Assembly (NCBI GenBank): GCA_043821365.1
Contig: JBDRCX010000001.1
Coordinates: forward strand, 1-45,712
Source of the DNA: Candidatus Micrarchaeota archaeon
Lineage (GTDB): Archaea; Micrarchaeota; Micrarchaeia; Anstonellales; Bilamarchaeaceae
DNA length: 45,712 nt
Direction: 5' to 3'
Within the stretch, counting starts at the first letter, position 1, and every line of letters begins with the position of its first letter. Of the stretch, positions 18,102 through 21,616 are shown in pieces. A program made the translations under genes and the position numbers. The notes beneath the pieces were generated by a model. It was not told the origin of the DNA. It saw nothing but the letters and a program-made list of their open reading frames with translations, and did not search any database.

Positions 18102-18183
18102 AAGTCGTAATATTAGCTTAACATTTTTAACTAATGGTTTTTTGACTCTGAAAATGATAATAGATTAAGATTTAAGTAAAAAA

Positions 18184-18437
18184 CGCTGAGGGCAGGATTT
18201 TCCGCGCCTTCTAGTAAAAGGTGCTCCAAAATGGCTTGTTGATTTTGCTCCGCAAAATGCGAAAACATTTCCATCAACCCAATTTTTGGAGCGCTTTTTT
18301 TCAAAAAGCGCTTTTGAACCTGCGATCCACGAGGGACACGCTTTCGGGCTTTTGGTAAAAAGCAGTTCCAGGCGTGCGCACTACCAGGTTTCGCGCCCTG
18401 CACGAAAACATCAGTCAGGACTTTATGCGACCTCAGC
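18184..18437 (-). tRNA. tRNA-Ser(GGA) with three introns (D-loop ~14/15, canonical 37/38, T-loop 59/60)
   Basis: Removing 18423-18390 (34 nt), 18365-18343 (23 nt) and 18312-18198 (115 nt) gives an 82-nt cloverleaf: GCTGAGG/CCTCAGC acceptor, G73, CACGC-CTGGAAA-GCGTG anticodon arm, long variable arm, GCAGG-TTCAAAT-CCTGC T arm. CCA not encoded. Confidence 0.9.
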
Positions 18438-18565
18438 AATGAACGATAGTGAATTGATGAGGGCCATTAGCAGCAGCCAATCAGACCTCAACTCATATGA
18501 GTTAAGTAAGTGGTTACCTAGGTTTTTAATAATTCCCAGTAAACTAAAATGGGAGGCGTTTATAT

Positions 18566-21421: not shown

Positions 21422-21616
21422 TGCGACTGCCGGGAATTGAACCCGGCCCGCGAGCTTATTCCGATCGAGCCTTTTGGAAAAGGCTCGACCCAAAACCGAT
21501 ATTCCAAAACCCGTGAGAGTTTTAAATTGGTTTTTTGCGCCGCTTTTTTACTAAAAAAGCGGATGGGAAGCTCGAATCATACCGTTGTCCGTAAATTTAC
21601 AATAGACTACAGTCGC
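21422..21616 (-). tRNA. tRNA-Gly(CCC) with two introns (D-loop ~15/16, 17 nt; canonical 37/38, 107 nt)
   Basis: Removing 21601-21585 and 21563-21457 gives 71 nt: GCGACTG/CAGTCGC acceptor, A73, CGAGC-TTCCCAA-GCTCG, CCGGG-TTCAATT-CCCGG. BHB central helices TTCC/GGAA and GTCT/GGAC. Confidence 0.92.

Follow-up and report, generated by a model that had tools for sequence, protein, structure and literature searches.

Disrupted transfer RNA (tRNA) genes comparable to the one described here are known from two groups of archaea. In ARMAN-2 (Candidatus Micrarchaeum acidiphilum), pre-tRNA-Cys(GCA) has an intron between nucleotides 59 and 60 (59/60), and pre-tRNA-Pro(GGG) has introns at 53/54 and 59/60 (Fujishima et al. 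2011, PMC3239211). The ARMAN-2 splicing endonuclease cleaves both a strict bulge-helix-bulge (BHB) motif at 37/38 and a relaxed motif at 59/60 in vitro (PMC3239211). Residue K161, in an ARMAN-2-specific loop, gives this enzyme its broad specificity, and its catalytic triad is Y236/H251/K282 (PMC3488258). In the Thermoproteales, tRNA genes have up to three BHB introns, with introns at non-canonical sites (Sugahara 2008 and Fujishima 2010, as summarised in PMC4033280; tRNAscan-SE 2.0, PMC8450103). According to the same summary, similar introns in different tRNA genes of the Thermoproteales imply transposition and are linked to a broad-specificity endonuclease (PMC4033280). Three is also the maximum number of introns given for any archaeal tRNA gene in reviews and with tRNAscan-SE 2.0 (PMC8450103). 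Here we describe an interrupted gene for tRNA-Ser(GGA) in a Candidatus Micrarchaeota archaeon, a member of the DPANN archaea (assembly GCA_043821365.1), found in a stretch of 45,712 nt that comprises positions 1 to 45,712 of contig JBDRCX010000001.1 and that we refer to as the window.

The gene is 254 nt long, lies on the minus strand at 18437..18184, and consists of four exons and three introns. We are highly confident that it is a functional three-intron tRNA-Ser(GGA) gene. A first-pass annotation, made from the letters alone, had proposed a tRNA-Ser(GGA) split by three introns (34, 23 and 115 nt, in the D-loop, at 37/38 and in the T-loop) that make up about 68% of the gene. This description is borne out in number, length and proportion, with 172 of the 254 nt (67.7%) being intron. 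The cleavage rule for BHB motifs refines the positions, placing the D-loop intron at 15/16 and the T-loop intron at 59/60. In the direction of transcription, the parts of the gene are as follows.

18437-18423, minus strand: exon 1, 15 nt, with the acceptor 5' strand GCUGAGG, U8, C9, the D-stem 5' strand GCAU, A14 and A15.
18422-18389, minus strand: intron 1, 34 nt, in the D-loop at 15/16.
18388-18366, minus strand: exon 2, 23 nt, with the remainder of the D-loop, the D-stem 3' strand GUGC, G26, the anticodon stem 5' strand CACGC and the loop CU-GGA-A (anticodon GGA).
18365-18343, minus strand: intron 2, 23 nt, at the canonical site 37/38, a small hairpin GCUUUU-UACC-AAAAGC with the tail CCGAA.
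18342-18313, minus strand: exon 3, 30 nt, with A38, the anticodon stem 3' strand GCGUG, the long variable arm UCCCUCGUGGAUC, the T-stem 5' strand GCAGG and the T-loop UUCAAA.
18312-18198, minus strand: intron 3, 115 nt, in the T-loop at 59/60, rod-like and structured, with hairpin modules at both ends.
18197-18184, minus strand: exon 4, 14 nt, with U60, the T-stem 3' strand CCUGC, the acceptor 3' strand CCUCAGC and the discriminator G73.

When joined, the four exons give an 82-nt class II molecule that ARAGORN calls tRNA-Ser(gga) and whose minimum-energy fold is the cloverleaf. It has a 7-bp acceptor stem (GCUGAGG with CCUCAGC, followed by the discriminator G), a D-arm, a 5-bp anticodon stem, a 7-nt anticodon loop with U33 and a purine at position 37, and a T-arm with UUC and A58. 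CCA is not encoded in the gene. A long variable arm and discriminator G73 are serine identity features. Both are present: the variable region is 13 nt (UCCCUCGUGGAUC), position 73 is G, and the body is like those of the genome's Ser(UGA) and Ser(CGA). The serine identity assigned from the letters therefore holds by the ARAGORN call, by the class II body and by the discriminator.

Comparison with the intronless tRNA-Ser(UGA) of the same genome (C6:508215-508296; 60.4 bits against Rfam RF00005) demonstrates the anatomy of the gene. The two molecules are equal in length and identical at 72 of 82 positions. All 10 differences are in the anticodon stem, the anticodon and the variable loop, and those in the anticodon stem are compensatory (CACGC/GCGUG in Ser(GGA) versus CCGGU/ACCGG in Ser(UGA)). 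Exon 1 is the same 15 nt with which tRNA-Ser(UGA) starts at C6:508215, and it is conserved in 40 orthologues; exon 4 is identical to the 3' end of tRNA-Ser(UGA). Even unspliced, the 254-mer folds with a z of -3.9 relative to shuffled sequences, and its acceptor, anticodon and T stems are preserved in that fold.

Motifs for splicing are demonstrable at each of the three insertions. In a strict BHB (hBHBh'), a 4-bp helix separates two 3-nt bulges and further helices lie on both sides, and relaxed motifs have the form hBH or HBh'. The archaeal endonuclease cuts each 3-nt bulge of a BHB behind its second nucleotide, in keeping with the canonical 37/38 geometry, and this rule, applied at all three sites, yields exactly the Ser(UGA)-like body. 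The T-loop motif had been described as near-ideal, with a TTCA/GGAA core and a GCGCUUUUU/AGAAGGCGC helix, and we find it so except for one A.G in the core. Its outer helix is the T-stem (GCAGG/CCUGC), its core joins UUCA (nucleotides 54-57) to GGAA at the intron 3' end through three Watson-Crick pairs and the A.G, and its inner helix has 9 pairs, 2 of which are G.U. The geometry is 3-4-3, the 3-nt bulges are AAA and AAU, and cutting restores UUCAAAU. For the T-arm together with intron 3, the forced BHB structure has an energy of -48.4 kcal/mol versus -51.3 kcal/mol for the free minimum-energy fold, a cost of 2.9 kcal/mol, and a variant with a separate local hairpin for each intron end has -45.9 kcal/mol. 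The BHB core is retained in both the forced structure and the local-hairpin variant.

The other two motifs are relaxed. At 37/38, the outer helix is provided by the anticodon stem, and the CUGG/CCCG core, which had also been noted in the first pass, has 3 of 4 pairs and a U.C mismatch. The minimum-energy fold uses a slipped register here, with a 3-bp UGG/CCG core and a 4-nt bulge beside the hairpin GCUUUU/AAAAGC. The motif is a relaxed BHB. In the D-loop, U8-C11 pair with the intron 3' end (UCGC/GCGA, 4 bp), followed by a 5-nt bulge on the 5' side and an intron helix GUCCUG/CAGGGC; an outer helix beyond the 3' cut is absent. As had been recognised, the junction is ambiguous within an A run: it slides over three A's, from 13/14 to 15/16, and all three junctions are equivalent and lead to the same product. 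In several orthologues, the D-loop intron ends in GUGC-AA or AUGC-AA, copying the D-stem 3' strand, and forms a cleaner 3-4-3 motif with GCAU. The D-loop intron in the window is a register-shifted version of this design. Because its helix uses D-stem nucleotides, the D-arm would have to refold after cleavage.

We fixed the D-loop junction by comparison with the intronless Ser(UGA) paralogue and the orthologues. Removal of intron 1 leaves the D-arm GCAU-AACCUGGUA-GUGC, and the D-loop AACCUGGUA is exactly that of tRNA-Ser(UGA). The same tRNA could be parsed with its 5' insertion between the acceptor stem and the D-arm (at about 8/9, 32 nt), so that the D-stem would be GCGC/GUGC. GCGC (pre-tRNA nt 42-45) and GUGC (nt 57-60) can form 4 pairs, and ARAGORN accepts this deletion as well. 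However, the D-arm test of ARAGORN barely discriminates: in a deletion scan at the D-loop, nearly any deletion of 28-42 nt was accepted. UC-GCAU-AAYYYGGUA-GUGC is the sequence in the Ser(UGA) paralogue and in every one of the 40 orthologues; it is exactly the product of the 15/16 model, and it is uninterrupted in the orthologues that have no D-loop intron. We give an insertion at 8/9 almost no credence and use the 15/16 junction throughout.

The first-pass annotation reasoned that such a set of motifs implies a broad-specificity splicing endonuclease and named the type of endA as a check. The genome (1.2 Mb, 36% GC, assembly 87% complete) demonstrably encodes an enzyme that answers to this. 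Its EndA, encoded at L081:1207-2388 on the minus strand, is a single polypeptide of 393 aa with three tRNA_int_endo-related matches in one frame, and residues 5-393 align to residues 4-387 of ARMAN-2 EndA (PDB 4FZ2; E = 3.5e-132). The GTYK loop, with the lysine equivalent to K161, is conserved, and so are the equivalents of the catalytic residues Y236, H251 and K282 (at the RIY, WMH and VKK positions). Judged by this alignment, EndA is an ARMAN-2-type epsilon2 endonuclease, a type defined by one chain of about 390 aa with alphaN-alpha-betaC units, and its specificity is predicted to be broad. A second, EndA-like open reading frame (ORF) of 163 aa, with a tRNA_int_endo catalytic domain, is at L082:1291-1782 (+), which corresponds to G000:C6 ~480404-480895; the best PDB match of its product is the alpha4 EndA of M. 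jannaschii (E = 2.4e-9). A gene for RtcB is also present. The RtcB matches, at G000:C6:673872-676544 (+), form two blocks about 1.4 kb apart within one open frame of 910 aa, which suggests an intein or another insertion.

We propose the following pathway for the gene. Transcription of the minus strand would produce a precursor of at least 254 nt from a functional, and apparently the only, tRNA-Ser(GGA) gene, and each of the insertions would present a BHB or relaxed BHB to an epsilon2-type endonuclease. For the T-loop intron (59/60), the T-stem would serve as outer helix and nucleotides 54-57 would pair with the intron 3' end. For the anticodon intron (37/38), the anticodon stem would be the outer helix and nucleotides 32-35 would pair with the intron. 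For the D-loop intron (15/16), nucleotides 8-11 would find their partner in the intron 3' end, which is similar to the D-stem partner strand, and the D-arm would refold after cleavage. Because the three motifs do not overlap, no order of cleavage would be required. RtcB would join the four exons, CCA would be added post-transcriptionally, and the mature 82-nt class II tRNA would read UCU and UCC codons. We infer transcription, cleavage at the named bonds, ligation and use in translation from the DNA sequence.

Several points weigh against this interpretation. The D-loop motif is weak: its bulge is 5 nt, its 3' site has no outer helix, and its helix is in competition with the D-stem. It is by analogy that a D-loop of exactly this geometry is expected to be an epsilon2 substrate. 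The 37/38 core either holds a U.C mismatch or requires the slipped register. Introns 2 and 3 each contain T5 runs, which could cause some premature termination by archaeal RNA polymerase. Splicing, its junctions and its order are predictions, and a second Ser(GGA) gene may lie in the 13% of the genome that is missing from the assembly.

Comparison with relatives of the same family adds a further line of evidence. The neighboring gene is glyA (serine hydroxymethyltransferase, SHMT), and its closest relatives are in Micrarchaeota metagenome-assembled genomes (MAGs), at 72-88% identity. The Ser(GGA) gene is immediately upstream of glyA in all four loci retrieved by means of glyA (the window, L001, L002 and L004). 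Two pattern searches across the family brought the collection to 40 distinct species-level versions (the window and 39 others); these searches required an intact exon 3, and the relatives are non-independent samples. With introns removed, the first 26 orthologues gave 22 distinct mature sequences, and these demonstrate both conservation and covariation of the exons. All stem cells (506 of 506) are standard pairs, and 8 of the 23 stem pairs have undergone compensatory double changes. For example, the acceptor stem is GCUGAGG/CCUCAGC, GCCGACG/CGUCGGC or GCCGAGA/UCUCGGC, and the T-stem is GCAGG/CCUGC, AGGUG/CACCU or GAGAG/CUCUC, in different orthologues. The 40 versions have introns at the following sites.

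37/38: intron in 40 of 40 orthologues.
29/30: intron in 19 of 40 orthologues.
15/16, in the D-loop: intron in 11 of 40 orthologues, 14-85 nt.
59/60, in the T-loop: intron in 6 of 40 orthologues, 22-115 nt, the one in the window being the longest.

Per gene version, there is one intron in 14 cases, two in 17, three in 8 and four in 1. Introns at the same site are largely unrelated in sequence between genomes, and the exons are near-identical. Conserved, co-varying exons combined with variable, dispensable insertions are the signature to be expected of spliced introns.

The orthologues also bear on whether the gene is decaying. The locus could be a former Ser(GGA) gene that was disabled by insertion of hairpin repeats, with UCU and UCC codons read by another tRNA. 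Such a history is suggested by the composition of the introns, which are made of hairpin modules found elsewhere in the genome (strict searches for the U-run/A-run hairpin module gave at least 13 copies versus 0 in shuffled sequence), and by the poor D-loop motif. However, none of the four exons is damaged, and it is only in the anticodon arm and the variable loop that they depart from Ser(UGA), a paralogue that looks functional; every insertion is exactly at a site where orthologues have an intron, flanked by a BHB-type motif. Moreover, the assembly yielded neither a further Ser(GGA) gene nor a Ser(AGA) gene, and about a third of the Ser codons sampled need a Ser(GGA) tRNA. We consider a pseudogene very unlikely, and the evidence argues for a functional gene from which three introns would be removed.

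The search for another Ser(GGA) gene had been named as a check on the first interpretation. With the mature sequence as query, short-word BLAST of the 87%-complete assembly found no second Ser(GGA) gene and only three Ser-type bodies: the Ser(GGA) of the window, Ser(UGA), and a gene at C2:15356-15470 (minus strand). ARAGORN calls the last of these Phe(gaa); parsed by hand, it is a tRNA-Ser(CGA) with introns at 30/31 (17 nt) and 37/38 (16 nt). The other 'Ser' calls of ARAGORN were mis-parsed and were rejected. The 'Ser(gga)' at C6:24257 is a Lys(CUU) gene with a canonical intron, the 'Ser(cga)' at C6:310709 is Arg(UCG), and the 'Ser(aga)' at C6:642598 is Glu(CUC), whose canonical intron is about 178 nt long. 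A Ser(GCU) gene for AGY codons was not found in the assembly either, and we therefore expect at least one further hidden Ser tRNA. UCU and UCC together account for 45 of 131 Ser codons (34%) in five ORFs of the window, and since these codons are used, a decoder with G34 is needed.

It had been anticipated that standard annotation would probably miss the gene, and by ARAGORN and Rfam, the tools on which we base this statement, it is missed. ARAGORN in default and intron mode, including runs on the whole genome, did not report the gene at 18437..18184, and Rfam at gathering and permissive E-value thresholds found no tRNA at the locus. Weak Rfam hits there, among them mir-2076, U5 and SmY, are artefacts produced by hairpins in the T-loop intron. 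Single-intron orthologues are missed by both default ARAGORN and Rfam at the gathering threshold; those in L087, L091, L101 and L106 are called as tRNA-Ser(gga) by ARAGORN in intron mode. In the whole assembly, ARAGORN (intron mode) and Rfam together give only 19-23 tRNA-like hits, several of which are mis-parsed or below the cut-off. Therefore, tRNA counts and completeness estimates of Micrarchaeota MAGs are systematically too low. Unless the Ser(GGA) gene is recognised, this genome would seem to have no decoder for UCU and UCC.

One orthologue has four introns. It is at L002:2470-2784 (minus strand; identical copy in L103), on contig JAUSHJ010000013.1 from Candidatus Micrarchaeota archaeon isolate E14_metabat.bin.186. 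The gene is 291 nt long, with intact exons and introns at 15/16 (43 nt), 29/30 (50 nt), 37/38 (17 nt) and 59/60 (98 nt), and each of these sites is shared with other orthologues. In the literature that could be searched, no archaeal tRNA gene with four introns was found, the published maximum being three. In three further orthologues (L117, L115 and L114), the stretch from the anticodon to exon 3 is 241, 165 and 159 nt; one very long intron at 37/38 could account for this, or else several introns, nested or side by side. Taken across the 40 versions, the introns look as if they had been gained and lost repeatedly at a small number of permissive sites.

The T-loop intron of the window has relatives in other tRNA genes of the same genome. 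Its first ~30 nt match two other sites in the genome, both within tRNA genes: tRNA-Ile(UAU) (C6, ~414690) and tRNA-Pro(GGG) (C6, ~717780). These two genes have T-arm introns of 138-145 nt, at 53/54 by hand parse. The three T-arm introns align over their whole length. Common to them are a hairpin at each end and one in the centre, with a CCAAAA block between the 5' and central hairpins and an AAAAUYARCAAG block between the central and 3' hairpins. To judge from this alignment, the T-loop intron is one copy in a family of introns that other tRNA genes of the genome also carry. It is absent from 59/60 in the orthologues of all 39 other species, and the site is empty in the closest relative sampled (L001, SHMT 88% identical). 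Recent acquisition is plausible on these comparisons, whatever the direction and mechanism of movement.

The earlier remark that 115 nt is long for a T-loop intron holds in part. The intron is the longest of the six at 59/60, but it is not exceptional, given the ~178-nt intron in Glu(CUC) of the same genome and the stretch of up to 241 nt at 37/38 in orthologues.

We observed further interruptions in the two related genes and elsewhere in the window. tRNA-Ile(UAU) (G000:C6:414480-414800, minus strand) and tRNA-Pro(GGG) (G000:C6:717600-717900, minus strand) have introns besides the T-arm intron; by hand parse, tRNA-Ile has introns at 37/38, 53/54 (the T-arm intron) and 59/60. ARAGORN and Rfam fail to recognise either gene in full. 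At 21538-21562 of the window, the hairpin module recurs as a strict copy (GCCGCTTTTTTACTAAAAAAGCGG), within the intron of a tRNA-Gly noted in the first pass; the window therefore has at least a second interrupted tRNA gene that goes unreported by ARAGORN and Rfam.

From the distribution of these introns, we suggest that introns have been gained and lost at the Ser(GGA) locus in what amounts to a natural series, with one to four introns at four fixed sites in 40 species. The series includes a four-intron allele beyond the published maximum, and in it the T-loop intron of the window would be a recent copy that moved from 53/54 of tRNA-Ile and tRNA-Pro to 59/60 of tRNA-Ser. We put this forward tentatively, with slightly more doubt than conviction. 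If it is true, the locus offers dated, site-resolved cases of the spread of introns that are spliced by endonuclease.

The T-loop intron might also be more than a passive insertion. Once released, it could have a second job, for example as a stable circular RNA or guide RNA. Its length and its strongly structured, rod-like form speak for this (the T-arm and intron fold at the -51.3 kcal/mol given above), as do the conservation of its family across three tRNA genes of the genome and the fact that some archaeal tRNA introns host C/D box RNAs. However, inspection found no pair of C and D boxes in it, CUGA being absent, and it has no Rfam match beyond the spurious hairpin hits. It is also missing from the orthologues of the 39 other sampled species, and the members of its family differ by large insertions and deletions. 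We regard a second function as unlikely and treat the intron as an insertion that would be spliced out.

The flanks of the gene contain candidate signals for its expression, read from the sequence.

18178..18183, minus strand: T6 run, directly after the discriminator.
18523..18532, minus strand: UUAUUAAAAA, an AT-rich candidate TATA element that precedes the gene by about 90 nt.

The T6 run is likely an archaeal oligo-T terminator, and a box similar to the candidate TATA box, GGGAATTATTAAAAA, is upstream of the orthologue in L001. Short hairpin elements also flank the tRNA gene. The copy in the window is upstream, at 18455-18492 (minus strand), and its ends (GUUGAGGUC...CCCUCAUCA) copy the acceptor-stem strands of the tRNA itself. 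Similar flanking hairpins are found at the orthologues in L001, L087, L090, L093, L100, L102, L104, L105 and L106, either in one to three copies upstream of the gene or downstream, where they repeat its last ~11 nt.

The gene described here resembles the disrupted tRNA genes of ARMAN-2 in several respects. Both are from the same phylum, and they share the 59/60 site, the mixture of strict and relaxed BHB motifs, the epsilon2 type of endonuclease, the presence of multiple introns and the failure of standard finders to detect them. They differ in that ARMAN-2 belongs to a different genus, and the genome studied here is small (~1.2 Mb) and low in GC (36%), and the tRNA is Ser(GGA). The 59/60 intron is 115 nt in the window versus 13 nt in the tested ARMAN-2 Cys substrate, and the window gene has an additional D-loop intron with a 5-nt bulge. 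Cleavage has been tested biochemically for the ARMAN-2 substrates, whereas the window gene is known from its sequence alone. Likewise, EndA of this genome is an orthologue, from another genus, of the enzyme in PDB 4FZ2 (Hirata et al. 2012, PMC3488258), its assignment as epsilon2 being made by sequence, and the genome has the small 163-aa EndA-like ORF in addition.

With the Thermoproteales, the shared features are multiple non-canonical introns, intron sequences common to different tRNA genes, and a broad-specificity endonuclease. The phyla are unrelated, and the enzymes differ: that of the Thermoproteales is an (alpha-beta)2 heterotetramer, and that of the window genome is, from its sequence, of the epsilon2 homodimer type. 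The introns in the window genome, which are AT-rich and built of U-run/A-run hairpin modules, are also unlike those of the Thermoproteales.

Multi-intron tRNAs and a permissive splicing enzyme have been known for the Micrarchaeota lineage since 2011-2012, and the window gene does not alter that knowledge. It provides a well-supported set of predicted epsilon2 substrates, a strict motif and two relaxed ones being combined in the same precursor, and together with its 39 orthologues it forms a compact comparative data set for intron gain and loss at defined tRNA positions. What goes beyond the searchable literature is partly outside the window: the four-intron orthologue (L002/L103), which exceeds the three introns described for the Thermoproteales and for archaea in general, and the series of one to four introns at a single locus.

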